A DNA stretch of 48,785 nt from Bacteroides sp. (GTDB lineage Bacteria > Bacteroidota > Bacteroidia > Bacteroidales > SM23-62), in contig DAOWJB010000076.1 of NCBI GenBank assembly GCA_030640625.1, forward strand, positions 1 through 48,785, read 5' to 3'. The translations under genes and the position numbers were made by a program. Of this stretch, positions 1-48,785 are shown piece by piece. The first letter of the stretch is position 1. The number at the start of each line of letters is the position of its first letter. The notes below the pieces were generated by a model. The model was given only the letters and a program-made list of their open reading frames with translations, was not told the origin of the DNA and made no database searches.

Positions 1-278
1 GGCAGTAATACCTGAATGACGATGAAATAACCCAGCAGGTAACCCAGGACAATCTGCATATAAGAGAACTGGCTGTCCCCCACCCAGCCCGGCAGGGAAA
101 TGAACGTCACCCCCGAAAGGGAGGCACCGATCATTCCAAAGGCAACGACATACCAGGGCGACCTCCTGTTGCCAATAAAAAAAGAGGCATTGTCGGCATG
201 GCGACCCGTCACATGGGAAATGACCAGGATCAGGGCGAAATAGAGCAGGATAACTGTCAGGACGAGGAATGGGGTCAT
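1..278 (-). CDS. Sodium:solute symporter (SSS family), N-terminal part; runs off the window start
   Basis: Not in the ORF track. Manual translation from ATG 278 gives [67 protein letters not shown]..., a typical SSS N-terminus. The frame is open to position 1. Confidence 0.9.
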
Positions 279-354
279 AATTTCAATTAATCCTTCCGAT
301 GAAGGAATTATTATACAAATAAATAAAAAAATTGCCTGATGAGGAATTTGGTGT

Positions 355-362
355 TATTTTTG
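355..362 (+). promoter_or_regulatory. Bacteroidota sigma-70 -7 box (TAnnTTTG) for recR
   Basis: TATTTTTG ends 23 nt before ATG 386. Confidence 0.55.
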
Positions 363-385
363 AAAAGTTCCTGAAACCATTTGGC

Positions 386-1033
386 ATGTCAGCATTCCAC
401 AATTATCCCTCAAAACTTTTAGAGCAAGCCGTTCGAGAATTTGCCGCCCTGCCTGGCATTGGTAGCAAGACGGCACTCAGGCTGGTGCTGCACCTTTTGA
501 AACAGGATATGGAAGATGTAGAAAACTTTGGGAATGCCATGATCGAACTCAAAAAAAACATACATCACTGCACGATCTGCCAGAATATTTCCGACACCGA
601 GGTCTGCCAGATCTGTTCAAATCCGAAACGGGACCGGCAACTGGTCTGTGTCGTAGAGAACATCAGGGATGTAATGTCTATCGAGGGGACCAACCAGTAT
701 ACCGGGCTATATCATGTGCTCGGGGGGATCATCTCACCGATCGAGGGGGTCGGTCCCGGCGACCTGACCATTGACCAGCTCGAGCAAAGGATCAAACCGG
801 GTGGCATTGAGGAGGTGATCCTGGCCCTGAGCACAACCATGGAAGGTGATACGACTAATTTCTATATCTATAAACGACTCCAGTCTTACCAGCTCAGGAT
901 AACCACCCTGGCACGCGGTGTAGCCATAGGTGACGAGCTTGAATATGCAGACGAGATCACCCTGGGCCGGTCCATCGTGGACAGGACACCTTTTGAGATT
1001 AATTTCAGTGGACGAAAACAGGACCTCTCCTGA
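386..1033 (+). CDS. recR: Recombination mediator RecR
   Basis: Hh[14 protein letters not shown]4 zinc finger CTIC...CQIC, Toprim motifs CVVE, YHVLGG and [13 protein letters not shown] 386 is preferred over TTG 332. Confidence 0.97.
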
Positions 1034-25410: not shown

Positions 25411-25412
25411 GA

Positions 25413-26138
25413 TCAGTTGCTTTTGTTTTTAAAGAAAGTTTCATAATTGCCAAGGCATTCCTCCATCATCTCCTGGAGTGCCACACTGGTGATGGTCCCT
25501 CCCGATATGGCATCGACGGCATGCGGATCAGCCGGATCAGCACCGCCCTTTACAACCCTGATGGAGGTAAATTTACCGGCATCATCAAATATTTTCTTCC
25601 CCAGGTATTGGGACTGATACCATTCCGTGTTGATCTCTGCTCCCAGTCCGGGTGTTTCCTTGGCATGGGCGAAGATGGCACCGTAAATGGTCGACATGTC
25701 TTCCTGCAGTGAAATGTACCCCCATATGGGTCCCCATAAGCCTTTCCCCTGCAGTGGAAGGATGTAGATCTCCGTGCCGTCTTCCTCTACAAAGATGAAT
25801 ACCGGGAGACTGCGTTCTTCGGGCGCTCTTGCCAGCTCAGCCTTAAGGTTAACCCTGAAAGCATCCACATCCTCTTTCAATGCTCCGCTTGCATCTATGG
25901 TAAAGCTCTTTGTAATATTTACCTCATAGGCCTCCTCCACAAAAGTATCTTTGTCCTTAACCTCATCAAGATCACGGGCGATACCTACAGAGCGCAGAAT
26001 ATCCAGTTTCTTCTCAATCTCAACATTTTTTTCCTGGAATGGCTTAAGCTGCTCTGCCACGAAGGACAAAAGGGTGGCAACCAGCATTACCATAACTGTC
26101 GAGAAAATAAAAATATATGTGTTGCTAAATCTCTTCAT
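25413..26138 (-). CDS. nqrC: Na+-NQR subunit C
   Basis: GKGLWGPIWGY, ETPGLGAEI, FMN-Thr motif ISGGTITS. Confidence 0.96.
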   Translation of the reverse strand: MKRFSNTYIFIFSTVMVMLVATLLSFVAEQLKPFQEKNVEIEKKLDILRSVGIARDLDEVKDKDTFVEEAYEVNITKSFTIDASGALKEDVDAFRVNLKAELARAPEERSLPVFIFVEEDGTEIYILPLQGKGLWGPIWGYISLQEDMSTIYGAIFAHAKETPGLGAEINTEWYQSQYLGKKIFDDAGKFTSIRVVKGGADPADPHAVDAISGGTITSVALQEMMEECLGNYETFFKNKSN

Positions 26139-26150
26139 AGGATTGGTCCT

Positions 26151-27335: not shown

Positions 27336-27368
27336 ATGCGTATGGGATGATTTTTTTTAGATGATGAA

Positions 27369-33361: not shown

Positions 33362-35788
33362 ATGAAGGTATTAAAATTCGGAGGATCCTCAGTTGGCACA
33401 CCGGAATGCATTCTGAGGGTTAAAACCATCGTTGAGAGCCAGGTTGAACCAAGTATTGTAGTAGTTTCTGCTTTCCAGGGCGTTACAGATCAATTAATCA
33501 AGGTAAGCAAGCTGGCAATGGAAAGGGAAGAAGCTTACAAGGATCTATTATCTGAGACCGAGCAAAGGCATTACCAGGCTGTCAAGGAACTTTTCCGGGT
33601 TAACCAGCAAAGCAATATCCTGGCTGGGATAAAAGTATTGATCAATGAACTGGAAGAGACCCTGCATGGTGTTTTTCTCCTGCAGGACCTGACAGCGAAA
33701 ACCCAGGATACAATCCTCAGTTTCGGAGAGCGATTGTCCTCATTCATCATCTCGCTTATAATCAACGATGCCTACCTGGTGGAAATCAGGGACCTGATCA
33801 AGACGAACAGTCAGTATAGCAAGGCCCAGGTCCTTTTCAACCAGAGCTATCCACTGATCGCGGAACACTTTAAATCCCTCCAAAAATATGCGGTTGTCCC
33901 GGGCTTCATCGCAAGCAATGAAAAGGGAGAGACAACCACCCTGGGACGTGGCGGATCAGATTACACGGCAGCCATCATTGCTGCGGGAGTTGATGCATCT
34001 GTCCTGGAAATCTGGACAGACGTGGATGGTTTTATGACAGCAGATCCGCGAAAGGTAGAGAAGGCCTATGCCATCGAATCATTGAGTTATGCTGAAGCCA
34101 TGGAATTGTCGCATTTCGGTGCGAAGGTTCTGTATACACCCACAATCCATCCGGTCCTTGATAAAAGAATACGCATTCATATCAAGAATACATTTTCTCC
34201 TGAAAAGAAAGGGACCCTGATCGGCATGCAGGAGATCGTTCCCAACCAATCACCCATCAAAGGGATCTCGTCCATTGACCAGGTTGATCTTATTACCCTG
34301 CAGGGTTCCGGCATGGTAGGCGTCACCGGTACTTCCATGCGCCTGTTCACGGCGCTTGCCGGACGGAATATCAATATCATCCTGATCACTCAGGCCTCCT
34401 CAGAGTATTCCATCAGTTTCGCCATACATCCAGACGGTACTCAGGAAGCAGAGCAAGCCATAAGGGAAGAATTTCACCATGAGATTGAGATCATTCATTC
34501 CATCAGGATCCTCGTGGAAAGAGACCTTTCGGTCATCGCTATTGTCGGCGAGAGAATGCGGCATACCCCCGGTATCTCTGCTAAATTGTTTCAGGCAATG
34601 GGACGTAACGGGATCAACGTGATCGCGATAGCCCAGGGATCCTCGGAGCTGAATATCTCCGTGGTGATCAGTCACCACAGCCTGCGGAAGGCAATGAATG
34701 TGATCCATGAAGGATTCTTCCTGTCTCATTACAAGGAACTTCACCTCTTCCTGGTGGGTGTCGGGACCGTAGGTTCCAGGCTGCTGAATCAAATCCGCAA
34801 CCAGCAAGAAAAGCTGTTGCTTCATCATCACCTCAAGGTTAACCTGATAGGCTTATCCAACTCTAAAAAGATGATCATCGATCACAATGGCATTGATATC
34901 GAAAGTTATAAAGACCTGCTCAGCGAGGGACAACCAACCGATTTGCAGGCTTTCTCCAACCGGATCGCAGAACTGAACCTGCGGAACAGTGTATTCATTG
35001 ATTGCACGGCAGCATCCGAGGTAGCTGAAGGCTATAAACAGCAGTTCAATAATTACGTTTCGGTAGTCACGGCCAACAAGATTGCATGTTCATCTGCCTA
35101 TGAGAATTACAAGGATCTGAAAAACACCGCACAGACAAAAGGCGTGAAATTCATTTTTGAGACCAATGTGGGCGCAGGCCTTCCCATCATCAATACGATG
35201 AACGACCTGATCAACAGCGGCGACAGAATCCTTGAACTGGAGGCCGTTTTGTCTGGTACACTCAATTACATATTCAATACCCTGGATAAGGATAACCGCC
35301 TGAGTGATGTGATCCGGCAGGCGAAGGAACTTGGCTATTCTGAACCGGATCCCAGAATTGACCTGAGTGGCATTGATGTCATTCGCAAACTCATCATCCT
35401 GTCAAGAGAGTCCGGCTACAAGATCGAGGAAAAACAGGTGAAAGTTACGCCCATCCTCCCAAAGGAATGTTTTGAAGGCAGCCTGGACGAATTCTGGCAA
35501 AAAGTTAGCAACTACGATGAGGAATTTGAGAAAGAACGGGCAGCGCTGGAAAAGAAAAATATGAAATGGCGTTTTGTGGCCCGGCTGAAGGAGGGCAAAG
35601 CTTCCGTAAGCCTTACTGAGGTTGGGATGGATCATCCCCTGTTCCCCCTGGAAGGAAGTAACAACATCATCATGATCACCACGGAAAGGTATAAGGAACA
35701 CCCCATGATCATTAAGGGATACGGAGCCGGTGCAGAAGTAACTGCCGCCGGATTGTTTGCCGATGTTATCCGGATAGCGAATATCTAG
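33362..35788 (+). CDS. thrA: Bifunctional aspartokinase / homoserine dehydrogenase I
   Basis: KFGGSSV, TTLGRGGSD, two ACT domains, GVGTVG, ETNVGAGLP, GYGAG. Confidence 0.97.
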   Translation: MKVLKFGGSSVGTPECILRVKTIVESQVEPSIVVVSAFQGVTDQLIKVSKLAMEREEAYKDLLSETEQRHYQAVKELFRVNQQSNILAGIKVLINELEETLHGVFLLQDLTAKTQDTILSFGERLSSFIISLIINDAYLVEIRDLIKTNSQYSKAQVLFNQSYPLIAEHFKSLQKYAVVPGFIASNEKGETTTLGRGGSDYTAAIIAAGVDASVLEIWTDVDGFMTADPRKVEKAYAIESLSYAEAMELSHFGAKVLYTPTIHPVLDKRIRIHIKNTFSPEKKGTLIGMQEIVPNQSPIKGISSIDQVDLITLQGSGMVGVTGTSMRLFTALAGRNINIILITQASSEYSISFAIHPDGTQEAEQAIREEFHHEIEIIHSIRILVERDLSVIAIVGERMRHTPGISAKLFQAMGRNGINVIAIAQGSSELNISVVISHHSLRKAMNVIHEGFFLSHYKELHLFLVGVGTVGSRLLNQIRNQQEKLLLHHHLKVNLIGLSNSKKMIIDHNGIDIESYKDLLSEGQPTDLQAFSNRIAELNLRNSVFIDCTAASEVAEGYKQQFNNYVSVVTANKIACSSAYENYKDLKNTAQTKGVKFIFETNVGAGLPIINTMNDLINSGDRILELEAVLSGTLNYIFNTLDKDNRLSDVIRQAKELGYSEPDPRIDLSGIDVIRKLIILSRESGYKIEEKQVKVTPILPKECFEGSLDEFWQKVSNYDEEFEKERAALEKKNMKWRFVARLKEGKASVSLTEVGMDHPLFPLEGSNNIIMITTERYKEHPMIIKGYGAGAEVTAAGLFADVIRIANI

Positions 35789-35791
35789 AAC

Positions 35792-36724
35792 GTGGATAAT
35801 GGAGTACATATATACTCGCCGGCTACGGTGGCCAATGTGGGACCCGGATTTGATATCCTTGGATTTGCCTTGAACCAGCCTGGAGATGAGATCCTGGTTG
35901 AAAAATCCGGAGAAAATGTACACAGCATCATAAACCAATCAGGACTTAGTTTACCCCTGGATCCTGTCAAAAACGTATCCACCGTTGCCATCGATTCCAT
36001 GCTGAACCAACTGGGAAGCACCCAGAAATTCCGCCTGACCTTCTTAAAAAAGATAGCACCCGGCAGTGGGATCGGTTCAAGTGCGGCCAGTTCTGCAGGA
36101 GCTGTTTATGGTGCCAACCATCTCCTGGGAAGTCCATTTACAAACCGGGAGCTGGTGCCTTTTGCCATGAAAGGAGAAGAGGCAGCAAGTGGTTCTGCCC
36201 ATGCGGACAATGTTGCCCCGGCCCTGCTTGGTGGATTTGTCCTGGTCAGGAGTTATGACCCCCTGGATATCATAAGTATTCCCGGACCGGATCAGCTTTA
36301 TTGCAGCGTGGTACACCCGGATATAAGTATTGCCACGAAGGACAGCCGCAAGATCCTGAAAACCACTGTATCCCTCGAGAAGGCAATAACCCAGTGCGGG
36401 AATGTGGCGGGATTGGTAACCGGACTGATTACCAGAGATTACCGATTGATCAGTGACTCGATGCATGACGTAATTGCTGAACCCGTCCGGTCTTTCCTCA
36501 TCCCGGAATACGAGAAAGTAAAAAAAGCCGCCCTTGAGGCCGGCGCCCTGGGATGCAGCATATCAGGTTCAGGGCCATCCATCTTTGCGCTCAGCGAGCA
36601 TGAGGACATTGCAGTCAGGGCCGGGAAGGCCATGGAAAATATCTTTACCGTCGCAGGGATCGGCAGCAATGTTTTTATTTCACAGGTTAATAAGCAGGGC
36701 ATGAATGTCATGACTAGCGAATAA
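35792..36724 (+). CDS. thrB: Homoserine kinase
   Basis: PATVANVGPGFD, GSGIGSSAAS, HADNVAP, SGSGPS; GTG start. Confidence 0.95.
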   Translation: MDNGVHIYSPATVANVGPGFDILGFALNQPGDEILVEKSGENVHSIINQSGLSLPLDPVKNVSTVAIDSMLNQLGSTQKFRLTFLKKIAPGSGIGSSAASSAGAVYGANHLLGSPFTNRELVPFAMKGEEAASGSAHADNVAPALLGGFVLVRSYDPLDIISIPGPDQLYCSVVHPDISIATKDSRKILKTTVSLEKAITQCGNVAGLVTGLITRDYRLISDSMHDVIAEPVRSFLIPEYEKVKKAALEAGALGCSISGSGPSIFALSEHEDIAVRAGKAMENIFTVAGIGSNVFISQVNKQGMNVMTSE

Positions 36725-38025
36725 TGAATTATTACAGCACCGGGAACAGACAGCTCAGGCGGTCACTGAAGGACGCGGTCCTCGATGGACTTGCCCCGGA
36801 TGGTGGACTCTATATGCCTGAAAGTATACCGGTCCTCCCAAAGGAACAATTGCATTCATTTAAGACCAAAACCTTCCCGGAGATCTCCCGGGAAATTGCG
36901 TTAAGCCTGTTCCATGAGGACCTGCCGGAACCGGATATCATAAGGATTACAGATTCAGCCATCAATTTTGACACCCCTCTGGTAAAGGTGGAAGATGGAA
37001 TCTATACCCTGGAATTGTTTCACGGTCCAACATTGGCATTCAAAGACGTGGGCGCCCGCTTCATGGCCCGAATGTTGGAACATTTTACCAGGGGACTCAA
37101 CCAGAAAATCAATGTCCTTGTGGCCACATCTGGTGATACCGGAAGTGCTGTGGCCAGTGGTTTTTTAAACGTAGAAGGTGTCCAGGTATTCATCCTTTAC
37201 CCTTCTGGTGGTGTAAGTAAGCTCCAGGAGATGCAATTGACTACACTTGGAGGCAATATAACGGCACTGGAGATATCGGGAACCTTTGATGACTGTCAAA
37301 GATTGGTGAAATCGGCTTTCCAGGACAGTGATCTCACAAAAAATATGATCCTGACCTCGGCAAATTCAATCAACCTTGCCCGCCTGCTTCCCCAGTCATT
37401 TTATTATTTCAATGCCTGGGCCAGGCTTTCGGAAAACCAGGAATTTTATGTCTCGGTACCCAGTGGTAACTTTGGAAATCTTACCGCCGGATTGATTGCC
37501 GGTAAAATGGGATTGCCGGTAAAGCATTATATCGTTGCCACCAATGTTAATGATGTAGTTCCCGAGTACCTGGATACAGGGAAATATCGCCCCCGGCCTT
37601 CCATAGCCACCATAGCCAATGCCATGGATGTGGGCAATCCAAGTAATTTTGCGAGGATCCTGGATCTTTATGGTCATTCCCATGAGACTATCCTTGATGT
37701 CATGAGTGCATATTCCTATACTGATAAGGAGCTTAAAGAAACCATGGGGGATGTTTACCGCCGTACAGGGTACCTGCTTGATCCGCATGGTGCTGCGGGT
37801 TATCAGGCCTTAAAACAGCATGCCCCAAAAGAGGAAGGAATTTCAGGAGTATTCCTTGAAACTGCCCACCCTGGAAAATTTAGCCTGACGGTTGAAGAAG
37901 TGATCCAATCCACTATTGAGATCCCCGAAAAGCTGAAGCAGGCATCTTCAAAGGAAAAAGTTAGTATACCGCTAACAAGCGAATTCTCAGAATTGAAGGA
38001 ATTCCTGGTTCAAACTGTACGTTAA
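36724..38025 (+). CDS. thrC: Threonine synthase
   Basis: GLAPDGGLY, ELFHGPTLAFKD, ATSGDTG, SANSIN, PSGNFGN. Confidence 0.97.
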   Translation: MNYYSTGNRQLRRSLKDAVLDGLAPDGGLYMPESIPVLPKEQLHSFKTKTFPEISREIALSLFHEDLPEPDIIRITDSAINFDTPLVKVEDGIYTLELFHGPTLAFKDVGARFMARMLEHFTRGLNQKINVLVATSGDTGSAVASGFLNVEGVQVFILYPSGGVSKLQEMQLTTLGGNITALEISGTFDDCQRLVKSAFQDSDLTKNMILTSANSINLARLLPQSFYYFNAWARLSENQEFYVSVPSGNFGNLTAGLIAGKMGLPVKHYIVATNVNDVVPEYLDTGKYRPRPSIATIANAMDVGNPSNFARILDLYGHSHETILDVMSAYSYTDKELKETMGDVYRRTGYLLDPHGAAGYQALKQHAPKEEGISGVFLETAHPGKFSLTVEEVIQSTIEIPEKLKQASSKEKVSIPLTSEFSELKEFLVQTVR

Positions 38026-38208: not shown

Positions 38209-39546
38209 CTAGATGATGCCCTGATCAAGCATGGCATTGGCCACCTTCATAAAGCCGGCAATATTGGCTCCATTTACATAGTTTATATAGCCATCGGGTT
38301 CTGTCCCATGTTCCACGCAGGCGACATGGATATTGGTCATGATCTCATGAAGTCGTCTGTCAACCTCTTCCCGTTGCCAGTTCAGTTTCATGCTGTTCTG
38401 TGACATTTCGAGGCCGGATGTGGCAACACCACCTGCATTGGCAGCTTTACCGGGAGCATACAGGATCTTGTTCTCCTGGAGTAATTCGATGGCTTCCGGT
38501 ATACAGGGCATATTGGCTCCTTCACAAACACAAATACAACCGTTCTTCACCAGGTTTTTAGCATCCTCCTCATTAAGCTCATTTTCCGTTGCGCAGGGCA
38601 TGGCAATATCGCATTTTACTTCCCAGGGATGTTTACCGGGCACGAACTCTGTCCCTTCAAACTCATAAGAATAAGGTTTGACAATATCTTCATTGGAAGC
38701 ACGCAGCTCCAGCATATAGTCTATTTTTTCACCGGATACTCCTTCCTGATCATGTACATAGCCATCCGGACCGGACAGGGTGACTACCTTCCCTCCCAGC
38801 TCGACAACTTTCTGTGCGGCGCCCCATGCTACATTGCCGAATCCGCTGATAGCAACCGTCTTTCCTTCAAATGTTTCCCCTTTTGTGGCAAGCATTTCCT
38901 TGGCGAAATAGACACAACCAAAACCTGTGGCTTCTGGACGGATCAGGCTGCCTCCCCAATTAATGCCTTTACCTGTTAACACACCCGTATTCTCCCTGGC
39001 CAGTTTTCTGTATATTCCATAAAGGAAACCTATTTCACGCGTACCTACACCGATGTCACCCGCCGGTACGTCGGTGGACGGGCCAATCAGTTTCCAGAGT
39101 TCAAGCATAAAGTGCTGGCAAAAACGCATGATCTCGCTGTTCGATTTCCCTTTTGGATTGAAATCAGATCCTCCTTTGGCACCACCCATTGGCAATGAGG
39201 TCAGGCTGTTCTTGAAAATCTGTTCGAATCCCAGGAACTTCAGTATGCTCAGGTTGACACTTGGGTGAAACCGAAGACCACCTTTATATGGCCCGATAAT
39301 ATTATTGAATTGGATCCGGTACCCCAGGTTCACATGTACATTTCCCTGGTCATCTTCCCAGGGTACTTTGAAAATAAGAATCCTGTCTGGCTCTATGAGC
39401 CGGTCGATAATACCGGCTGCCTCGAAATGTGGATTGGCATTGTAAATTTCCTCAATGGATTCCAGGACTTCCCGTACAGCTTGATGATATTCCGGTTCTC
39501 CCGGGTGCTTTTTCTCGAGTTCAACCATTACCCTGTCAACGTTCAT
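38209..39546 (-). CDS. gdhA: Glutamate dehydrogenase (hexameric GdhA family; the SGPDG motif suggests the NAD-preferring Bacteroides GdhB type)
   Basis: GPYKGGLRFH, KNSLT.LPMGGAKGG, DVPAGDIG, RPEATG, GFGNVA, KAANAGGV. Confidence 0.95.
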   Translation of the reverse strand: MNVDRVMVELEKKHPGEPEYHQAVREVLESIEEIYNANPHFEAAGIIDRLIEPDRILIFKVPWEDDQGNVHVNLGYRIQFNNIIGPYKGGLRFHPSVNLSILKFLGFEQIFKNSLTSLPMGGAKGGSDFNPKGKSNSEIMRFCQHFMLELWKLIGPSTDVPAGDIGVGTREIGFLYGIYRKLARENTGVLTGKGINWGGSLIRPEATGFGCVYFAKEMLATKGETFEGKTVAISGFGNVAWGAAQKVVELGGKVVTLSGPDGYVHDQEGVSGEKIDYMLELRASNEDIVKPYSYEFEGTEFVPGKHPWEVKCDIAMPCATENELNEEDAKNLVKNGCICVCEGANMPCIPEAIELLQENKILYAPGKAANAGGVATSGLEMSQNSMKLNWQREEVDRRLHEIMTNIHVACVEHGTEPDGYINYVNGANIAGFMKVANAMLDQGII

Positions 39547-39639
39547 AACTGTTAGATTTGATTTTCATTTAAAAATACATTTATACCTCTTGTCTGGCAA
39601 ATAATATAACATGATATAAAATATTGACTTTTATCAGGT

Positions 39640-42615
39640 TTAGCCGGAAAAGGTATCCTTATAGATAACCCCTTTATTGGATTTGCCATCTACCTCTACC
39701 CTGAGTGGTTTGTTAAACCGGATATGTCTGAAATACTCATTTTCCATGGTTGCGGGGAGCTTATCAAGATATTCAAGGTCAAAGAACCCATCATTAATAA
39801 ATGGATTGATGGTGAAATAACCTACCCTGAATGAAGTGATGTTCTGGAAAAAGTGGGTACCCTGGCTGGGATCGATCCGGTAATTTTCCAATCCGGATTC
39901 GATAATCACCCGTGCAGCTGAAAGCTGGGCCCATTTGGCAGGTATCCCAAGCCAGGGATCAGTCGATCCCCATCTTCCCGGTCCGATCAGGATGTAATTT
40001 TTCCCATCGCGTAAGAACTCTTCATTTTTTGCCTCGATCAGTCCAGCAATTTTACTGTTGTTCGCAGGATCAAATGAAGCTGGTTTTACATATACCAGGT
40101 CCTTGAGATCTTCAAAGGATCCATTCCCCAGAGCCGATTCAGAATATACGATGGTATCTTCCAGATTGACATCATCAAGTTTGAAGCTAATGCTCTGATC
40201 ATTTAAAACAATCGGCCTGATCTGAAGGAAACTGAAAACAGCAGGAAGTCCGGTCGGCATATCCAGATTTATGGCAAATTCTATTTCTATCGGGTTATTC
40301 ATTTCCTTCTGGCCTGTCTGCAGAAGGTCGCTCAGGATTTTTGCCAGTGGAATGGCATTATAATTCAGCAGCTGTGAGAAGGTGACAACCCGCTTTCCGG
40401 GACCATATACACCATCCCTGATCATATGGTTCTCATAATCATAGGTGGATGCGGCATACCTGAAGGAAGCATCTTTCTCTGCATCTTTGAAGGGTATCTT
40501 CAGCAGGTTTGCCCCATCGTCCACAGAAGGAATGAAACTATTGGGATCCAGGTTGACAGCCAGGAATTTTTTCTGGGTATCCTTTAAGACCATATCAGGA
40601 TCTGAAAGTTGAAGTACCTTTTTGGGATATTTGGGTGAGAATCTGAGTCCAACGCCGCCTTCCATCAAATATTTTCCGAGGCCGTAGGCAATTACTGCAA
40701 TACCATCTTCTGGTTTTTCCGGTTCGATAGGATAAAAGTTAATAGACCGGGCAACCCCCGACAGGGAAGGGTAAAATCTGTCTCCATATGCAGATCCGCA
40801 CACCTCCTGCAAAATAATGCCCATTTTTTCCTCGTCTATCACATTGGAAGTGGCAGCCATATAAGATTTACTGCTTTTATAATAGACCGAGGCATACACA
40901 CTTTTTATGGCTGCTGTAAGGATGTTAAGCATATGATCCCTGTCTTCTTTGTCACAAGGGACCATATAGGTGGAATAGATCCCTGCAAAAGGCTGGTAAT
41001 GAGAATCTTCCAGCTTGCTAGAACTCCTCACGGCCACAGGATTCTCGAGGACCTCGACAAATGCCTTCAAATCCTGAATTACCCAGTCCGGCATGGCAGC
41101 ACGGAGGAAATAATCCAGGATCTCCACGTCCTCTTTATCGGACAGGGCCACCCCGAACAGATCATTTTCTACCATAAAATCATCAAAAACATCCGTACTC
41201 AGGACAACCGTTCTGGGTATGGTTATCACAATCCCCGGATATTTATTGAAAAGATGATGTTTTTCAATAATTGAGTTGATAAATGCCAGTCCCCTGGCTT
41301 TACCACCGCTGGATTCTTCTCCTATTCTGCTGAATACCAGGTATTCATTAAATTTATTCCTGTTAAATTTTGCAATGATACCCCGGCCCTTGGCAATCCT
41401 GAAATTGGAGATGGACTCATAGAGGTAGCTCCTCAATTCATCCAAACTTGGAAAATCCTCATTTCTCACGTGTTTAAACAACTGGGCAACCTGAAATAAT
41501 GCCCGGGCATTCAGCCATTTGGAAAAATCATTGCGCCCGGAATGCAATTCTAGCACCTTTTCAGGGATCTTCAGTATCTCTGTCTGCATGGCCTGCAGGT
41601 CCTCGGCCCTGCCAATCTCTTCCATGGTGTCAGGATCACGAAAAACAAAATCTCCAAATCCAAAATTTTCAAGGATGTATTGATTCAGTTCATGCGAGAG
41701 AGACTTTGAATATTTATGCATAAACCCAATGCCCAGGTCTTTAGCCTCCTTTGCCATGGTTTCATCGGATGACTGCAGGAGGAAAGGCATGAACTTATCT
41801 TCCTCTTTGACCAGCCTGCAAAATTCAAGGCCCATTTTTCCCTTCTGCCTACTCCTGGCATTTTTCTTAAAGTTCACATCAGATATGATCCCCAGCATAT
41901 TATACTTGTACTTCTGGAATAGTTTTACAGCGTCATCAAGGGACGTAGCCAATAGAACCTTTGGCCTCCCCCTCATCCGCAACATACGATGATGTTCATT
42001 CAGGGCTTCCTCGCTGAATTCCCTGGATTGTTTCAGGATAATTTTATACAGGTTAGGAAGATAACTTGAAATATACCTGATGGAATCCTCCACCAGCAGA
42101 ATTGTCTGAACACCAACTGCCTCCACATCATGCTCGGCATTCATTTTGTCTTCGATTAGTTTGATGATGGCAAGGAGAAGGTCTGCATTTCCAAGCCATG
42201 AAAAAACATAGTCAATGGCAGAAAGGTCTTCTTTTTGAAGTCGTACAGAAACTTCACGGGAGAAGTGAGTGAGCGTTACGATGGGTATCTCCTCATACTT
42301 GGCCTTGATCTGTTTTGCCAGCTCAAAGGTATCGATGTCCTCAATATTCAGCATTTCAATGATCAGGTCAATTTGCTCCTTTTTCAGGATCTTAAAAGCT
42401 TCCCTGGCAGAATTTGCCAGGATAAATATGGGGGGATAACGCAGGTTCAGGGAAACATATTCATTAAAGATCTGTTCATCAATGCGACCGTCCTCTTCGA
42501 TCATGAATGCATCATAATTGCTGCAGATCAATAATACCTTCCGGATACGTTTTTGCATCAGGAGGTTAAAAGGCGGCTGGCCAAAATCAATGGTGGGAAT
42601 GTTTAATTTATTCAC
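39640..42615 (-). CDS. Receiver-domain + PPDK_N ATP-grasp protein ('PEP synthase-like') lacking the PEP/pyruvate barrel, paralog A
   Basis: Receiver motifs ILLVED, IISDV, QSS and FMHK; GGKARGL, AVRSSS.LED.....FAG.Y.T, IEIEFA, LQIRP; C-terminal GPGRWG...GTHFF. Confidence 0.85.
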   Translation of the reverse strand: MNKLNIPTIDFGQPPFNLLMQKRIRKVLLICSNYDAFMIEEDGRIDEQIFNEYVSLNLRYPPIFILANSAREAFKILKKEQIDLIIEMLNIEDIDTFELAKQIKAKYEEIPIVTLTHFSREVSVRLQKEDLSAIDYVFSWLGNADLLLAIIKLIEDKMNAEHDVEAVGVQTILLVEDSIRYISSYLPNLYKIILKQSREFSEEALNEHHRMLRMRGRPKVLLATSLDDAVKLFQKYKYNMLGIISDVNFKKNARSRQKGKMGLEFCRLVKEEDKFMPFLLQSSDETMAKEAKDLGIGFMHKYSKSLSHELNQYILENFGFGDFVFRDPDTMEEIGRAEDLQAMQTEILKIPEKVLELHSGRNDFSKWLNARALFQVAQLFKHVRNEDFPSLDELRSYLYESISNFRIAKGRGIIAKFNRNKFNEYLVFSRIGEESSGGKARGLAFINSIIEKHHLFNKYPGIVITIPRTVVLSTDVFDDFMVENDLFGVALSDKEDVEILDYFLRAAMPDWVIQDLKAFVEVLENPVAVRSSSKLEDSHYQPFAGIYSTYMVPCDKEDRDHMLNILTAAIKSVYASVYYKSSKSYMAATSNVIDEEKMGIILQEVCGSAYGDRFYPSLSGVARSINFYPIEPEKPEDGIAVIAYGLGKYLMEGGVGLRFSPKYPKKVLQLSDPDMVLKDTQKKFLAVNLDPNSFIPSVDDGANLLKIPFKDAEKDASFRYAASTYDYENHMIRDGVYGPGKRVVTFSQLLNYNAIPLAKILSDLLQTGQKEMNNPIEIEFAINLDMPTGLPAVFSFLQIRPIVLNDQSISFKLDDVNLEDTIVYSESALGNGSFEDLKDLVYVKPASFDPANNSKIAGLIEAKNEEFLRDGKNYILIGPGRWGSTDPWLGIPAKWAQLSAARVIIESGLENYRIDPSQGTHFFQNITSFRVGYFTINPFINDGFFDLEYLDKLPATMENEYFRHIRFNKPLRVEVDGKSNKGVIYKDTFSG

Positions 42616-45600
42616 CAGATATATGGTTATTCCAAGTGATCAGGGAAGTACGCTTCTTCCCATCCATCACTATGGTTAAGGGTTCTTCAAATTCAATATG
42701 GGTTATATATTCCTTGTCACTGATAACTTTTTGCATTTTCAGTTTTTCCCAATCGATATAATCCGTATCAGAATCATGCTTAACGGATAAATATCCGACA
42801 TTCATGGAAGTCAAATTGTGAAAGAAATGGGATCCGAGCGAGGCATCCAGCGGAAATTCAGGCAGGCTTATTTCAACAATTACCCTGGCGTTGGATATCT
42901 GAGGCCAGACCAGCGGGATACCGATAAAACGGTCCCTGGTACCCCAACGACCCGGACCGATCAGGACGTACTTCTTGTCTTTTTTCACCATCTCGGCATT
43001 CAAGGCTTCAATTTCAGGGATAATCTCCTGTGTCCTTGTTTTATTAAATTTCTCAGATTTTATAAATACTACATCCCGGATATCCTCCACTGTCCCATTC
43101 CCCATGCTGCGCTCTGCATACAATAGGATCCTGTCCCTGTCAATAAGCTCCATATTTATCTCAAAATCATCCATGCTTCCTGCCAGCGGCTTGAGTTGCA
43201 GCAGGTAAAAGGAGGCCCGTCCTTGTTCATCCCTGTTGAGATCAACCGCATATTCAATTTCCACGGGAGCACCCAGGGCTTCCTTTACTACATTCAGGAT
43301 CAGTTCGATTGTTTTGGCCATGGGTATGTACTCAAATTTGAGTATGTCTGCAAAATTTATGATACGTGGACCAGAGGCATCGAGTCCAGGTGTAACTTTT
43401 TGATTATCATAATTATATACCGATGCACAATGATTCAGGGTACCATGTCTTTCGGCCTCATTGATCTCCAGCCTGATGAGTCCTGCATCCTGACCCAATC
43501 TCAGTAGTTCCGGGTCTTCCTTTTCCATGTTAATGGCATAAAAAAACACCTGCGAACCCTTTATCTGCTCCTGTGGTGTATAATTCTCCAGATCGGGGTA
43601 TTTGGGAGAGAACCGGTAGGCCTTATAGCCTCCCACTACGTATTGTCCGAGTCCCAATGCAGATACTGCATAGCCGTCTTCCGGCTCCATATGTGCCACC
43701 GGATAAAAGTTATAGGACTGTGCCGTACCACTTATATGCGGATAATAATAACCGTTGAAGGGATTGCCTACTACCTCCTGGATAACGACAGCCATCTTTT
43801 CATCATCGACCCTGAAATTGATGGCTTCAAAATAACTGCGGGCATGGTTGGAAAAAATAGAAGCATATACAAGTTTTATGGCATCTATTGCCTGCTTCAG
43901 CCGGACCTTGAATTCAGCATGATTATTGGGAAGTAAATAGGTGTCGAATACACCGGAGAAAGGATGGGTATTACTGTCCTCCAACAGGCTGGAGGACCTG
44001 ATTGCCAATGGCGTCTTTACATTTTTTACTAGGGTACGCAGTTTTTTTTCCAGACCATAAGATAGATCACCTTCAAGGAACTTTTGCTTGATTTCTTGAT
44101 AGTCAATGCCTGAATGTACCTGGTCATTCAACTTATTTCTTTCCATGAACAGGTCAAACTCGTCTGTACCAATCACAGAGGTAATGGGTGTCCTGATCTG
44201 GATACCGGGAATAATTTCTGAAAAATTCAGGTTGTAGATCAGCGTATTTACGAAAGCCAGTCCCCGTCCCTTCCCTCCAAGAGCGCCAGTACCCATGCTG
44301 ACAATATTTTTTTCATCAAGAATGGCATTCTCTTCAAAATTGATTATCTGCCCTATATTGGCATCATTACGGTGTTTCCCGATGACGTCTTTGAGATAAT
44401 TCCTGAATTCCAACGTGGTTTTGAAATCTGAAACCTGAATTGGATGGATCATTTTGGCGATCTTGATCTCGCCTCTTGCCATCAACCAAAGAGTAAAATG
44501 ATTACGGTTCGCATGATAAACAAGTGACTCCTCGGGAATGGTATCTATGTGATTTTCGAATTCCTTGAGTGTCCTGGCCTCTGCAATGGTTTTACCCGAA
44601 GCATCCTTGTAAACAAAATTCCCGAATCCCAGATGATGTTTTATAAAACTTTCAATATCCTGTATCAGGGTTTCTGAATTTTTATTAATGAATATCGATT
44701 TCAGTTCAAAGGCACGGTGTGAATTCTGGACATCGGAGGACTGGATAACGGTAGGTAATCCCCTTATCTGTTTCCTGATCTGTCGGACCAAGCCAAAACC
44801 TGCTTCCTCATCCATGGCCCCTACCCGGGGGTATTTAACATCCGTGATCAGGCAAAGAAGGTGCTCCTTGTACTGATTAAAGATATCTATAGCCTGTTCA
44901 TATGTAGTGGCCAGCAGGATTTTCGGGCGTGCCCTCATCCGCAATACCTTCAAAAGGTCATCCGAGCTTACATCCTCAATGATCCGCTCGGTATGTTCCA
45001 TCACATTGCTGTATAGCAGCGGCAGGTAGCGTGAATAGTATTTTTCTGAATCTTCGACCAGCAGGATCACTTTCACCATGCCAATATTCGTATCGTTTTC
45101 TACATTAACCTTATCTTCCAGTTGTAAGATCATGGCAGAGAAGATCTTGCTGTCTCCATTCCAAACGAAGATCCTGTCAATAATATCAAGATGATTTGAA
45201 TGCTCCTTAAACCGTGTGATCTCCAGGTTATTATTCAGCAGGACATAGATTGGAATATAAGGGAAATCTTTTTTTACCCTGGTCCCTATCTGAATGTGTG
45301 TATGCCAGTCGCTACTGATCATCAGGATCACCAGGTCGAAATGTTTTGAATTCAATTGTTCAAGTGCTTCCTTATAGGTGGATACCCCGGTGACCCTGGG
45401 CATAGATGTTTGGTTAAGCTGGCGATATTCCCCTAAGATGTATTCGGAGAAATGACCCTCTTTCTCTATAGCATAAGCATCATACAATGTTGCCACCAGC
45501 AGGATCTCCTTTACCCTATAGGGCATCAGGTCATGAAAGATATCCCGGTTTGCATTTTGTTTATTCAGGAATTTCTGGAGAAGCTGCCTGGAACTGAGGG

Positions 45601-46084
45601 TGGGCGTTTGAAATTCAGATTTTTCAGATTTATCCTTGATCTTTTCCTTTGAAAGCTGTAAAATCTCCCTGGCTTCCAGACTGTCAATATAATTCGACAG
45701 GATACTTGCCAGATTAATGATCAGGTCTCTTTCCTCCTTGAGGAAGGGTCCCTCATCAAATTCCTTGAATTTCCGAAGGTAATAGACCTCTATCATACCT
45801 TCTTCCCTATCGACTGTCTGGAAAATCTGCTGCTGACACCATCCGGTCTTCCTGAAATTCTGCGACAGGTATTCCTTCCCTGCATAACGGATCCGGGCCA
45901 CAGTCCGTTCCGGGTATTGCCAGGCCCGAGGCAGGATCTGCACTATCTGCTGAAATGTTTCGCTCAGGGATTTCCCCTCTTTCAGGATCTGGGTGGTACG
46001 GTTTATACAGGCCAGTTCCTTCAGTCGCTCCTTCTTTTCAGCGATGATCCTTTCAACTTCTCTGGGATTGCTGTTTTCAGCCAT
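42608..46084 (-). CDS. Receiver-domain + PPDK_N ATP-grasp protein, paralog B, with an extra N-terminal GAF-like (ERLKEL...FLKEE) module
   Basis: Same motif series (ILLVED, LITDV, GGKGRGL, AIRSSS.LED, VEIEYA, GPGRWG, GSHFF); its stop overlaps the start of paralog A by 8 nt. Confidence 0.85.
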   Translation of the reverse strand: MAENSNPREVERIIAEKKERLKELACINRTTQILKEGKSLSETFQQIVQILPRAWQYPERTVARIRYAGKEYLSQNFRKTGWCQQQIFQTVDREEGMIEVYYLRKFKEFDEGPFLKEERDLIINLASILSNYIDSLEAREILQLSKEKIKDKSEKSEFQTPTLSSRQLLQKFLNKQNANRDIFHDLMPYRVKEILLVATLYDAYAIEKEGHFSEYILGEYRQLNQTSMPRVTGVSTYKEALEQLNSKHFDLVILMISSDWHTHIQIGTRVKKDFPYIPIYVLLNNNLEITRFKEHSNHLDIIDRIFVWNGDSKIFSAMILQLEDKVNVENDTNIGMVKVILLVEDSEKYYSRYLPLLYSNVMEHTERIIEDVSSDDLLKVLRMRARPKILLATTYEQAIDIFNQYKEHLLCLITDVKYPRVGAMDEEAGFGLVRQIRKQIRGLPTVIQSSDVQNSHRAFELKSIFINKNSETLIQDIESFIKHHLGFGNFVYKDASGKTIAEARTLKEFENHIDTIPEESLVYHANRNHFTLWLMARGEIKIAKMIHPIQVSDFKTTLEFRNYLKDVIGKHRNDANIGQIINFEENAILDEKNIVSMGTGALGGKGRGLAFVNTLIYNLNFSEIIPGIQIRTPITSVIGTDEFDLFMERNKLNDQVHSGIDYQEIKQKFLEGDLSYGLEKKLRTLVKNVKTPLAIRSSSLLEDSNTHPFSGVFDTYLLPNNHAEFKVRLKQAIDAIKLVYASIFSNHARSYFEAINFRVDDEKMAVVIQEVVGNPFNGYYYPHISGTAQSYNFYPVAHMEPEDGYAVSALGLGQYVVGGYKAYRFSPKYPDLENYTPQEQIKGSQVFFYAINMEKEDPELLRLGQDAGLIRLEINEAERHGTLNHCASVYNYDNQKVTPGLDASGPRIINFADILKFEYIPMAKTIELILNVVKEALGAPVEIEYAVDLNRDEQGRASFYLLQLKPLAGSMDDFEINMELIDRDRILLYAERSMGNGTVEDIRDVVFIKSEKFNKTRTQEIIPEIEALNAEMVKKDKKYVLIGPGRWGTRDRFIGIPLVWPQISNARVIVEISLPEFPLDASLGSHFFHNLTSMNVGYLSVKHDSDTDYIDWEKLKMQKVISDKEYITHIEFEEPLTIVMDGKKRTSLITWNNHISGE

Positions 46085-46101
46085 TACTCTGCCTGTTTTT
46101 A

Positions 46102-46109
46102 CAAAAATA
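46102..46109 (-). promoter_or_regulatory. -7 box for the paralog B-A unit
   Basis: TATTTTTG on the minus strand, 17 nt before ATG 46084. Confidence 0.5.
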
Positions 46110-46147
46110 CGAAACGATTATCAAATGAGATTGCCGGGTGGGCAGAT

Positions 46148-46193
46148 AAAAAAACCGTAAACCTGATCCTGTTCCCACAAGATCCGTTTACGG
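46148..46193 (-). terminator. Intrinsic terminator after korB
   Basis: Minus strand CCGTAAAC-G-GATC...GATC-AG-GTTTACGG followed by T7. Confidence 0.7.
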
Positions 46194-46215
46194 CATTTGC
46201 GCAAGGCCATAAGTA

Positions 46216-47244
46216 TCATTCAACCTCGAAAGTGTTCCCGGAATGTAGCAAATCATTAACCGTCTTAATCTTAGAATGTTCCTTAGCCGCGGCTATCTGA
46301 CTGGTTAACAGCGATTCATAAACGGTGTTGTCACAGGAGCGGATAACGCCCATTGCCACAGGCAATTCCGGAAGCGCCATGCGGGCAAGCATATAATGAG
46401 TTGTGTCGTCCGGATCTTTATCATCATGGACCAGGATATCTTCCATCTTATATCCGTTTTCTCCTATGGTAACAGCTTTCAAACGGCCATGCTCCATGAC
46501 CAGGCCCTTCTTCCCTTCATTGCCAAAGATCATGGGCTCACCGTGTTTCAGGTATATCTGATGCTCGGCCCGAACCTCTTTGCCTGTGATCTCTTTGTGG
46601 ACCTGGTTGGCGAAAATGATACAATTCTGCAAGACTTCGACTAATGAGGTACCCTTGTTTTCAGCTGCCTTGATAAATACTTCCCTCATCATCTTCGGTT
46701 CCGTATCCACTACCCGGGCAAAAAATGCGCCATTCGCACCCATGGCCAGTTCCCCGGGCATGAAAGGATTTTCAATGGTCCCATCCGGTGATGTTTTGGT
46801 AACGCTTCCCTTGGGTGTGGTTGGTGAATACTGTCCTTTGGTCAGTCCATATATCTTATTATTGAAAAGAAGAATATTCACATTAATATTCCGCCGGAGA
46901 AGATGAATGAAATGATTCCCCCCTATGGCCATCAGATCACCGTCACCGGTAACCACCCAAACACTCAGGTCGGGATTCGCCACCTTTATCCCGGAGGCTA
47001 TGGCGGTTGCCCGTCCGTGCAGGCTGTGAAATCCGTAGGTATTGATGTAATAAGGGAACCTGGAGGAACAACCGATCCCGGAGACAAATACAACATTTTC
47101 CTTTTTAACCCCGGTCTCGGGCAGGGCGCTCTGAACAGTGGATAGTACAGAATGACCGCCGCATCCTGCACACCACTTAACGGGTTGGTCTACCTTAAAA
47201 TCTGCTTTGGTCAGTTCACCAATATTTTTCAGCGCATCACTCAT
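46216..47244 (-). CDS. korB: 2-oxoacid (2-oxoglutarate):ferredoxin oxidoreductase beta subunit
   Basis: WCAGCG, SGIGCSSR, HGRA, TPP motif GDGD...IGGNH, NN.IYGLTKGQ.SPT. Confidence 0.93.
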   Translation of the reverse strand: MSDALKNIGELTKADFKVDQPVKWCAGCGGHSVLSTVQSALPETGVKKENVVFVSGIGCSSRFPYYINTYGFHSLHGRATAIASGIKVANPDLSVWVVTGDGDLMAIGGNHFIHLLRRNINVNILLFNNKIYGLTKGQYSPTTPKGSVTKTSPDGTIENPFMPGELAMGANGAFFARVVDTEPKMMREVFIKAAENKGTSLVEVLQNCIIFANQVHKEITGKEVRAEHQIYLKHGEPMIFGNEGKKGLVMEHGRLKAVTIGENGYKMEDILVHDDKDPDDTTHYMLARMALPELPVAMGVIRSCDNTVYESLLTSQIAAAKEHSKIKTVNDLLHSGNTFEVE

Positions 47245-48785
47245 GATAATTCCTCCAATATTTCATTGTACTTATACTTCAATTCTGAGATCATAAATGG
47301 CAGTCCCTGGATCTTATTATACTTCAAATATTCAAATTCCGGGTACTCCATCCTCAGGTAACTGGCAAATTGTCCCAGGTTCAATTCACACACGATCCTT
47401 TTTTTGAATCCTTTAAGTACCTCCCGTGTATTTGCCGGAAGCGGTCTAATGAAATTGAACTGGGCTAAGCTGATGCTTTTCCCATCATCCTGCAGTTCCT
47501 CAACTGCTGTGATCAGGGCACCATATGTACCTCCCCAGCCGATGACCAGCAGGTCGCCTTCCTTTTCCCCGATGATTTCCTGTTCTGGGATAAATTCAAC
47601 CACCTTCTGGACCTTGGCCTCCCTTTGTTCGACCATAATCTGGTGATTCAGGGGGTCATTCGATATTTCCCCCGTAATATCCGCTTTTTCCAATCCGCCC
47701 ACCTGGTGACGTAACCCTTCCTGCCCAGGTATCGCCCAGTACCTGGCCAGTTTATCCGGACGCCGGTGATAGGGGTAGAAATTCGGATCATTGTCTTCCA
47801 CGACAGGGACCTCAATATCCGGCAGGTCATTTACATCCGGGATATGCCATAATTCTGAACCATTCGCCAGGTACCCGTCAGTTAGCAGGATCACCGGGGT
47901 CATATGCTCGATCGCTATTTTGGAAGCTTTATATGCATAATCAAAACAATTGGCCGGTGTACTTGCGGCAATAACAACGACAGGACTCTCCCCGCTCCTT
48001 CCATACAGAGCCTGCATCAGGTCAGCTTGTTCCGTTTTGGTCGGAAGTCCCGTAGAGGGCCCGCCCCTTTGAACATTCACAATTACCAGGGGCAACTCGG
48101 TCATGACTGCCAGTCCGATTCCTTCACCTTTCAACGCAAGTCCGGGTCCGGATGTAGTAGTCACTGCCAGCTTGCCAGCAAAACTGGCACCGATCGCCGA
48201 ACAGATCCCGGCAATCTCGTCCTCTGCCTGGAATGATATTGCCCCCAGGTGTTTCATGCCGGCAATTTCCTGAAGAATTTCTGAGGCGGGTGTTATAGGA
48301 TAGGAACCCAGAAAGAGAGGTCTGCCGGATCTTTCTGCAGCAGCCAGCAATCCCCATGAGGTAGCCTGGTTGCCTGTGATATTTCTGAACAACCCTTTTT
48401 TCTTGAGGGCCGGATTCACCATGAAGGTGGTTGTCATGGCCTCGATGGTTTCAGCATAATTATAACCCTCCCGCAGGACCTTGATGTTTGCCTTGACAAG
48501 TTCGGGCTTCTTGCCAAATTTTGCTTCCAGAAAACCTTCACCGATCTTGATATCCCGGTTGAACAACCAATATAGCAGTCCGGCTACAAACTGGTTTTTT
48601 GTCTTGTCGGCTGTCTGGTTATCCAATCCGAATTCCTGTACTGTAGACCTGGTCAACGTTGTAATGGGTGCTTTCACCACATTGTAGCCTTCCAGGCTGC
48701 CATCATCAAGCGGGTCTTCGATGTAGCCAGCCTTCTTATAATGCTTGCTATCGAAATTACCAATATCGATAATGATGGTAGCGCC
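47241..48785 (-). CDS. korA: 2-oxoacid:ferredoxin oxidoreductase alpha subunit; 5' part lies outside the window
   Basis: YPITPASE, QAEDEIA, TTSGPG, QRGGPSTGLPTKTEQAD. The frame stays open past 48680 to the window end, and the stop overlaps the korB start (ATGA). Confidence 0.93.
   Translation of the reverse strand, partial: GATIIIDIGNFDSKHYKKAGYIEDPLDDGSLEGYNVVKAPITTLTRSTVQEFGLDNQTADKTKNQFVAGLLYWLFNRDIKIGEGFLEAKFGKKPELVKANIKVLREGYNYAETIEAMTTTFMVNPALKKKGLFRNITGNQATSWGLLAAAERSGRPLFLGSYPITPASEILQEIAGMKHLGAISFQAEDEIAGICSAIGASFAGKLAVTTTSGPGLALKGEGIGLAVMTELPLVIVNVQRGGPSTGLPTKTEQADLMQALYGRSGESPVVVIAASTPANCFDYAYKASKIAIEHMTPVILLTDGYLANGSELWHIPDVNDLPDIEVPVVEDNDPNFYPYHRRPDKLARYWAIPGQEGLRHQVGGLEKADITGEISNDPLNHQIMVEQREAKVQKVVEFIPEQEIIGEKEGDLLVIGWGGTYGALITAVEELQDDGKSISLAQFNFIRPLPANTREVLKGFKKRIVCELNLGQFASYLRMEYPEFEYLKYNKIQGLPFMISELKYKYNEILEELS

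Follow-up and report, generated by a model that had tools for sequence, protein, structure and literature searches.

We analyzed a 48,785-nucleotide stretch of DNA from Bacteroides sp. (contig DAOWJB010000076.1, positions 1 to 48,785; source assembly, 352 contigs), which is referred to here as the window. The region 38209-48785 carries five genes, all on the minus strand: korA (cut), korB, two paralogs that we call B and A, and the glutamate dehydrogenase (GDH) gene gdhA. A and B each combine two receiver domains with a dikinase-type ATP-grasp domain and a C-terminal domain bearing a conserved histidine. Their catalytic and acceptor residues are conserved, and their relatives are linked to gdh and korAB and co-occur with gdhA. 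We regard it as an even call that A and B are receiver-gated, histidine-autophosphorylating regulators of GDH that act at the 2-oxoglutarate/glutamate node. The genes and intergenic features of the locus were as follows.

47241-48785, minus strand: korA-like 2-oxoacid:acceptor oxidoreductase, alpha subunit (truncated at its 5' end by the window boundary; POR_N, 173.6 bits)
46216-47244, minus strand: korB-like beta subunit, thiamine pyrophosphate (TPP) binding (TPP_enzyme_C, 109 bits)
About 46147-46194, minus strand: intrinsic-terminator-like hairpin and U7 after korB (from fold energy compared with shuffles)
46102-46109, minus strand: TATTTTTG, a suggestive match to the Bacteroidota -7 motif TAnnTTTG, 18 nt before the ATG of B
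42608-46084, minus strand: paralog B, 1158 aa (open reading frame [ORF] call)
39640-42615, minus strand: paralog A, 991 aa, GTG start (ORF call)
39547-39639, minus strand: spacer between A and gdh, exactly 93 nt, without a terminator-like fold (z, +0.73)
38209-39546, minus strand: gdhA-type glutamate dehydrogenase of the hexameric family, 445 aa (ELFV_dehydrog, 302 bits; ELFV_dehydrog_N, 165 bits)

The ORF coordinates bore out the co-oriented order korA-korB-B-A-gdh, with 93 nt before gdh, that an earlier note on this DNA had claimed. The same note had placed a terminator and a new promoter after korB. The terminator between korB and B is well supported: the hairpin in this spacer folded at -29.5 kcal/mol (z, -2.9), and 1 of 200 shuffles folded equally well. 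The promoter ahead of B is plausible. We grade it no higher because TAnnTTTG, the consensus of the Bacteroidota -7 promoter motif, was not enriched across the window (35 found versus 32 expected) and because a generic sigma-70/terminator consensus scan of the window was not above shuffles; the korB hairpin was not among the output of that scan. The stop codon of B and the GTG of A overlap by 8 nt (GTGAATAA, 42608-42615), an arrangement in which A and B would be translationally coupled, probably working as a pair. Given the terminator before B, the 8-nt overlap between B and A, and the lack of a terminator-like fold before gdh, B-A-gdh may be a single transcript. The public gene call for A (954 aa) begins at an inner ATG. 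Because A homologs align from residue 1 to 3 and the GTG at 42615 overlaps the stop codon of B, the deposited start of A probably makes the protein too short.

On profile matches, the gdh product is unambiguously a family-I hexameric GdhA, with a full-length model match comprising ELFV_dehydrog_N and ELFV_dehydrog and with scores of 805 bits against NCBIfam PRK14030 (cut-off, 743) and 709 bits against the NADP-specific model PRK09414 (cut-off, 536). A second gdh of the source genome, unlinked to A and B, lies on contig 267. The korA product scored 538.5 bits against TIGR03710 (cut-off, 482.75), and the korB product scored 236.5 bits against TIGR02177, under its cut-off of 261.9. The KOR-specific equivalogs were far under cut-off (210.9 versus 579 and 203.2 versus 364). 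As judged by these models, korAB encodes a two-subunit 2-oxoacid:acceptor oxidoreductase of the OAFO family, for which 2-oxoglutarate is a candidate substrate.

A and B, the sole two members of their family in the source genome, are 34% identical across 982 aligned residues. Their domains and candidate phospho-carrier residues are listed below.

42136-42546, minus strand: A REC1, aspartate-less receiver, residues about 24-160 (Response_reg, 42.4 bits)
41680-42114, minus strand: A REC2, receiver with a complete phospho-acceptor set, residues about 168-312 (codons checked)
41326-41679, minus strand: A linker domain, conserved, residues about 313-430 (conserved columns in alignment A1)
40186-41325, minus strand: A PPDK_N-type ATP-grasp domain, residues about 431-810 (PPDK_N, 117 bits, and model)
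39643-40185, minus strand: A C-terminal His domain, residues about 811-991 (no Pfam family; model)
39853-39855, minus strand: codon of A His921, candidate phospho-carrier in the motif SQGTHFFQN (from conservation)
45560-46084, minus strand: extra N-terminal domain of B, residues 1-175, absent from A (no Pfam family)
42827-42829, minus strand: codon of B His1086, in the motif GSHFFHN (codon checked)

Residue conservation was read from an alignment of 228 full-length relatives. The two receivers differ in their acceptor sites. At the acceptor position of REC1 (residue 87 of A), A has E and B has L, and the 228 homologs have mainly T (99), C (36), I (24), V (20), or S (13). Residues Y34, D35, W140, and G142 of REC1 are near-invariant. 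Pfam Response_reg matched A over REC1 residues 66-141 and gave B 22.4 bits, under the cut-off. REC1 is an aspartate-less receiver (ALR), i.e., a receiver fold without the acceptor Asp. REC2 carries the complete response-regulator set of an acidic pair, an acceptor Asp, a Ser/Thr, and a Lys. In A these are E176 (228 of 228), D177 (216), D246 (225), S282 (225, plus 3 with T), and K301 (228); in B they are E344, D345, D415, S449, and K468.

The linker (A 300-440) matched no Pfam family, a weak hit to DUF5752 (E value, 0.013) being the only one. The ATP-grasp motifs of A are GGKARGLAF at 437, RSSSKLEDS at 530, EIEFAI at 777, and LQIRP at 797, and PPDK_N (PF01326) scored 129 bits in B. The architecture of B runs from a sensor-like domain (about 1-175) through an aspartate-less receiver (about 190-330), REC2, and the linker to the ATP-grasp domain (about 597-975) and the His domain (about 976-1158). 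The N-terminal part of B (1-180) matched no Pfam family. A search of Atlas features found GAF clusters for this domain at only 0.88, so it is possibly GAF-like, a lead only; a counterpart of B 8-133 opens the far-type relatives described below.

The C-terminal domain is where the putative phospho-carrier lies. Its motif has the consensus SQG[ST]HFF.N, and His921 is nearly invariant in alignments A1 and A2 and invariant in A3 and A5. Of the A-type proteins, 183 of 187 carried G[ST]HFF, as did 38 of 41 of the B type and 10 of 11 short forms. Pfam assigned no family to A 800-991 and found no PEP-utilizers domain (PF00391) there. A structural model of A 430-991 (predicted local distance difference test [pLDDT], 88; predicted template modeling score [pTM], 0.85) matched rifampin phosphotransferase best (5hv1; VIA Z, 26.1; root mean square deviation [rmsd], 2.9; 286 residues aligned), followed by phosphoenolpyruvate (PEP) synthase (2ols; Z, 25.9; rmsd, 4.5; 361 aligned), HpeI (9goj; Z, 18.6), and pyruvate phosphate dikinase (PPDK; 1dik; Z, 17.7). 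Several of these alignments continued across the His-domain region (for 2ols, residues 2..559 of the model onto 4..467; for 1dik, 1..558 onto 3..510). Folded alone, the C-terminal domain had a pLDDT of 90.8, and the model placed His921 at the beginning of helix 121-129. In a comparison of this domain against 48,161 representative chains, run with no Foldseek prefilter, eight chains reached a Z of at least 5, and seven of these eight were phosphohistidine swivel domains. The swivel matches were the rifampin phosphotransferase (RPH) domain 756-867 (Z, 6.8), the C-domain of Bacillus pyruvate kinase (2e28; 6.7), the PPDK carrier domains 2fm4 (6.7) and 1vbg (6.0), and further Enzyme I (5woy, 2wqd, 5t12). 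On this modeling the C-terminal domain is probably a diverged phosphohistidine carrier (swivel) domain.

Databases name such proteins, among other things, "phosphoenolpyruvate synthase" and "PEP/pyruvate-binding domain-containing protein," and the PPDK_N match lends these names some color. We see next to no chance that A and B are ordinary PEP synthases or PPDKs. They lack the PEP-utilizers_C barrel (PF02896) and any Pfam PEP-utilizers match, they end about 70 residues past the His, and PEP-synthase NCBIfam models gave them 20 to 56 bits against cut-offs of 598 to 1063. A canonical PEP-utilizers domain does occur in the same genome, in a separate protein on another contig. Because the barrel is absent and the NCBIfam scores are far under the cut-offs, we conclude that A and B are not PEP synthases, and genes of this type should not count as gluconeogenic PEP synthases in metabolic models. 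The label touches many proteins, given that 4,976 clusters at 50% identity match the family at an E value of ≤1e-3. BT1971 and BT1972 are not genes of this type; BT1971 is a catalase.

Gene neighborhoods were compared in three samples. S1 drew on 301 genomes sampled evenly across the phylum and took every long match in them (60 loci; about 8.5 kb of flank), with 14 far-type rows at 27 to 30% identity and one isolated short-form row (G185:C4) left out. S2 consisted of 80 loci from species representatives, those nearest to A (Bacteroides, Prevotella, Parabacteroides, Muribaculaceae, Paludibacter, Lentimicrobiaceae, and others). S3 comprised 74 metagenome loci, its seed being a distant member that shares a 90% cluster with a protein named from a Candidatus Cloacimonetes metagenome-assembled genome (MAG). 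Genes were labeled by BLAST against the five proteins of the window, with at least 50% identity to its gdh defining the GdhA type. Family genes of 850 aa or more were taken as full-length (228 of the 252 called) and were scored as linked when a GdhA-type gene lay within 600 nt.

A lack of gdh linkage among homologs had been named beforehand as an outcome against the regulatory idea, and the reverse was seen: in the three samples together, 103 of 226 full-length homologs had a GdhA-type gene within 600 nt. The linked A-type genes numbered 41 of 56 in S1 (44 of 56 counting a distant ELFV dehydrogenase), 16 of 76 in S2, and 33 of 54 in S3. For B-type genes the values were 0 of 4, 3 of 3, and 10 of 33, respectively (13 of 40 in all samples). 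Among the unlinked A-type genes of S2, 17 had less than 1.5 kb of flank. Clustering of the proteins at 70% identity gave 99 clusters, of which 47 had a linked member, 12 were uninformative owing to contig edges, and 4 had korAB. The next commonest neighbor family within two genes occurred at 11 of 214 loci.

In a FastTree phylogeny of the 228 proteins, linkage was spread over all major clades and changed state 38 times, and each clade is paired with its own GDH class. In clade Y, a GDH class at 50 to 63% identity lay directly upstream in 34 of 44 cases and an ELFV dehydrogenase at 30% identity lay downstream in 19 of 44. Clade X had the GDH class at ≥64% upstream in 17 of 34. In clade B, there was a divergent gdh in 11 of 31, a co-oriented korB upstream in 10 of 31, and an A-type gene downstream in 11 of 31. 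The arrangement seen in the window recurs in parts. B-A-gdh was found at four loci (L063, L159, L170, L172), korA-korB-B(-A) at nine (L148, L150, L161, L164, L178, L180, L191, L201, L206; several of these contigs are close kin), and korAB-A at one (L105); korAB lay directly upstream of 9 of the 33 B-type metagenome genes. Beyond the Bacteroidota, the Cloacimonetes-labeled cluster was joined by a 67%-identical contig (L141) that reads paralog-paralog-gdh.

The family and gdhA also occur together at the genome level. Counted by hand over the 301-genome sample, gdhA-type genes (E value, ≤1e-60) were present in 51 of 51 genomes with a full-length member versus 49 of 250 others, a descriptive comparison in which kin are not independent. 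Within the taxonomic family coded f30, 11 genomes had both the A/B family and gdhA, and 5 had neither. The earlier note had pointed to the glutamate/2-oxoglutarate node as the site of action. That idea gains comparative support from the gdh linkage together with the recurring korAB upstream of B, and the co-occurrence of the family with gdhA agrees with it.

Two side observations concern the composition of these loci. In many genomes of the phylum sample, a cassette of the order gdh (≥64% class)-A-gdh (57 to 60% class)-A-ELFV (30%) was found (L008, L009, L010, L021-L024, L028, and others); in this cassette, three dehydrogenase paralogs are interleaved with two family members, each of its own clade. 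Six loci (L075, L089, L112, L138, L130, L080) come from bins labeled Acutalibacteraceae, Staphylococcus, Eggerthellaceae, Spirochaetales, or Victivallales, yet their family genes nest inside Bacteroidales clades, and these bins are probably mislabeled or contaminated.

Variant clusters bear on the role of the receivers. In a third type of cluster, an ELFV dehydrogenase (33% identical to GdhA) is followed by a REC-less short member and then by a far relative. The far relatives (about 1060 aa; seen at L057:6374-9565 on the plus strand and at L056, L058, L059, L060, and L045) start with a stretch like B 8-133, contain PPDK_N (207 bits), and end in a nucleotidyltransferase domain (PF01909; 25.4 bits; cut-off, 21). 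Such a nucleotidyltransferase beside a GDH-like gene is reminiscent of control of the GlnE/GlnD type. That the His motif and the dehydrogenase neighbor both persist in the REC-less form points to the receiver as an input and not an obligatory phospho-acceptor. In other clusters (L022, L024, L195, L200, L194, L166), a PAS-HisKA_3-HATPase_c kinase and a REC-GerE (NarL-type) regulator sit between gdh-A units; at L200, for example, they occupy 5542-6984 and 7662-8294, and the clusters read gdh-A-gdh-A-ELFV. The embedded PAS-HisKA_3 kinase is a candidate phosphodonor for REC2.

These clusters also speak to a different reading, in which the protein would be a self-contained phosphorelay: acting as an unorthodox histidine kinase, the ATP-grasp/His half would phosphorylate Asp246 in the REC2 of the same protein or of its partner, and the output would be a change of oligomer state or of binding in place of phosphotransfer to GDH. 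We consider this improbable. Nearly all members do carry both the carrier His and a complete acceptor Asp in one chain, and paralog pairs are common, with B-A in 11 of the 31 B-clade genes. The short forms, however, retain the motif and still adjoin an ELFV dehydrogenase although they have no receiver to phosphorylate, and a classical kinase already stands embedded in some of the clusters.

The regulatory mechanism that we favor, at about even confidence, would run as follows. The phosphorylatable REC2, preceded by the aspartate-less REC1, would gate the dikinase-type half, i.e., the PPDK_N ATP-grasp and the carrier domain. As the signal, a histidine kinase would phosphorylate REC2; in the case of B, a ligand on the extra N-terminal domain would contribute as well. 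Once signaled, the ATP-grasp domain would phosphorylate the carrier His (His921 in A, His1086 in B). Either the phosphoryl group or the enzyme in its activated state might then act on the neighboring GDH and switch its activity. The outcome would be a changed split of 2-oxoglutarate between amination by GDH and oxidative decarboxylation or reductive carboxylation of the KorAB type. We infer the autophosphorylation step, the identity of the target (GDH), and which way its activity is switched.

A bolder version goes well beyond this, and we hold it to be distinctly doubtful. A and B would be a new kind of histidine kinase, with an ATP-grasp domain in place of the GHKL ATPase and with a relay from His921~P or His1086~P to a receiver Asp, either within one chain or in the partner. 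The activated A-B heteromer would directly phosphorylate or clamp the GDH hexamer and would act on KorAB as well. The pair would then be the master switch of the node in the Bacteroidota and neighboring phyla, a counterpart of PknG-GarA, and the long-missing agent of the reversible GDH inactivation reported for Bacteroides and of the trans-acting genes named near its gdhA.

Several points weigh against GDH regulation by A and B, even in its simpler form. Any contact with or modification of GDH is deduced from context. The clade closest to A is mostly not adjacent to gdh (16 of 76 within 600 nt and 26 of 76 within 8 kb in S2), and 36 of the 99 clusters at 70% identity show no gdh link. Related genomes are not independent, and raw linkage counts overstate the support. 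The earlier note had placed a "ppsA" gene beside gdh in Bacteroides. This was found in part: in two MAGs, one of Bacteroides and one of Phocaeicola (L084, L090), the family gene adjoins gdh in divergent orientation, and in B. bouchesdurhonensis it lies 2.7 and 10.7 kb from the two gdh genes, but it lies 30 kb from gdh in B. muris and 47 kb in B. timonensis. In Paludibacter, a single A-type gene lies 316 nt from one gdh, and in Parabacteroides, a single A-type gene lies about 5 kb from both gdh genes. On the basis of these distances, the gdh link is loosened in gut Bacteroides. Longer forms of the family (1736 to 4955 aa) were also checked for a fusion to GDH and contained none, which is weak evidence.

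In a further reading, the linkage would reflect co-regulation only, A and B being general signaling proteins of carbon/nitrogen status with targets elsewhere and gdh just sharing a regulon or a stretch of chromosome with them. We rate this as rather unlikely. It would accommodate the many gut Bacteroidales orthologs that are not adjacent to gdh, as well as the other neighbors that exist, including korAB, peptidases, and the two-component pair. It sits poorly with the presence of gdhA in every family genome of the phylum sample versus about a fifth of the others, with adjacency that holds down to about 35 to 40% identity and in every major clade, and with the rarity of any other neighbor family.

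The remaining adverse points concern the chemistry. The Z scores behind the swivel assignment were modest (5.2 to 6.8, all under 8), a Foldseek search with the C-terminal domain gave no match at an E value of ≤1e-3, and hhalign of this domain against the swivel domain of the genome's own PPDK returned a probability of 0.2%. Because of these modest scores and negative comparisons, we hold the carrier assignment at probable. Furthermore, all of the characterized fold relatives (RPH, HpeI, PEP synthase, and PPDK) phosphorylate small molecules. A and B could likewise be receiver-regulated small-molecule dikinases that pass the phosphoryl group from His~P to a metabolite, in the glutamate/2-oxoglutarate area or elsewhere, with GDH as a pathway neighbor rather than the target. 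This is unlikely in our estimation. In its favor, the best structural relatives are all of that kind, A and B retain the ATP-grasp motifs and the carrier His, and aminotransferase and peptidase genes recur nearby (6 and 10+6 loci). On the other side, Pfam finds no equivalent of the PEP/pyruvate barrel or the rifampin-binding domain, the two receivers and the sensor-like domain of B point to signaling, and the clade-wise pairing with GDH classes is more specific than a shared pathway requires.

Elsewhere, the window carries a type IX secretion system (T9SS) plug protein, the Nqr operon (ApbE and NqrA-F at 21812-28721), and thrABC, which fit a Bacteroidota genome. The genes thrA (fused aspartokinase/homoserine dehydrogenase), thrB, and thrC (33362-38025, plus strand) converge on the 3' end of gdh, with no apparent link to the A/B-gdh finding. 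An 807-aa fused E1 (alpha and beta) component of a 2-oxoacid dehydrogenase is encoded at 19107-21530 on the minus strand. A lipoyl E2 acyltransferase is encoded at 4368-5756 on the plus strand, 13 kb from the fused E1 and on the opposite strand.

In the Bacteroidota, which are dominant in guts and anoxic sediments, GDH forms the principal gate between carbon skeletons and ammonia. Reports of reversible inactivation of Bacteroides GDH date from the 1980s. According to its title, a 1996 paper by Baggio and Morrison deals with trans-acting genes that lie downstream of gdhA in B. thetaiotaomicron and influence GDH activity. A full-text literature search (supplements excluded) returned no paper tying the A/B family to GDH and no molecular explanation for the switching of GDH activity in Bacteroidota. 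B. fragilis is described as having two GDHs that are differently regulated (PMC4539542). Since the family adjoins GDH genes far more often than expected by chance, A and B are probably a missing switch in carbon/nitrogen balance. If the proposed mechanism is true, it offers a testable candidate for the control of GDH, and a very large family mislabeled as PEP synthase gains a function.

Post-translational switches at branch points are known from PknG-GarA/OdhI in actinobacteria, AceK acting on isocitrate dehydrogenase, and GlnE/GlnD acting on glutamine synthetase; GarA is reported to act on a 2-oxoglutarate-consuming enzyme and on GDH. The likeness of A and B to these systems is conceptual. 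The protein families and the chemistry (a Ser/Thr kinase with an FHA protein, or nucleotidyl transfer) are unrelated to those of A and B, with no homology implied.

The dikinases stand closer. PpsA and PPDK share with A and B the PPDK_N domain with its conserved motifs and, likely, phospho-His chemistry. A and B differ in having no TIM barrel, a His domain that is unrecognizable by sequence, and about 430 to 600 added N-terminal residues of receiver and sensor domains. The rifampin phosphotransferase RPH-Lm (5HV1/5FBS) is the top fold match for both the ATP-grasp domain and the isolated His domain, and its His domain is likewise C-terminal. Unlike A and B, it has a large rifampin-binding domain, no receivers, and an antibiotic substrate. 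VIA alignments of A 430-991 resolved no domain of the rifampin-binding type between the ATP-grasp and His domains, and the NCBIfam model RIF_Ptrans_rph (NF041857) gave B 27 bits against a cut-off of 999, over residues 664-773 within the ATP-grasp domain.

The receiver-PPDK architecture appears in published censuses (PMC5847659; Maule et al. 2015, PMC4395418), and according to one of them, aspartate-less receivers are enriched on PPDK-type outputs (PMC4395418). The architecture listed there is that of A and B, and REC1 fits the enrichment. In the portions of these censuses that were available, the architecture is given alone, with no function, His domain, or GDH link (PMC5847659, PMC4395418).

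[quoted passage not shown] As described there, VadK resembles A and B in pairing an ATP-binding domain with a phospho-carrier His domain, without a PEP/pyruvate domain, and in its proposed regulatory role at one metabolic node. It differs in its size (about 50 kDa), its methylcitrate-cycle partners, and its lack of receiver and sensor domains; moreover, its His domain is recognizably PPDK-like, whereas that of A and B has no sequence match. The architecture of A and B is compatible with histidine autokinases like VadK, a likeness of architecture and not of compared sequences. We would describe A and B as a putative dikinase-derived regulatory kinase, here fused to two-component receivers and tied to GDH. 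If this is true, it extends the idea raised by VadK (2026), that truncated dikinases have been turned into regulatory histidine kinases, to a form wired into two-component signaling.

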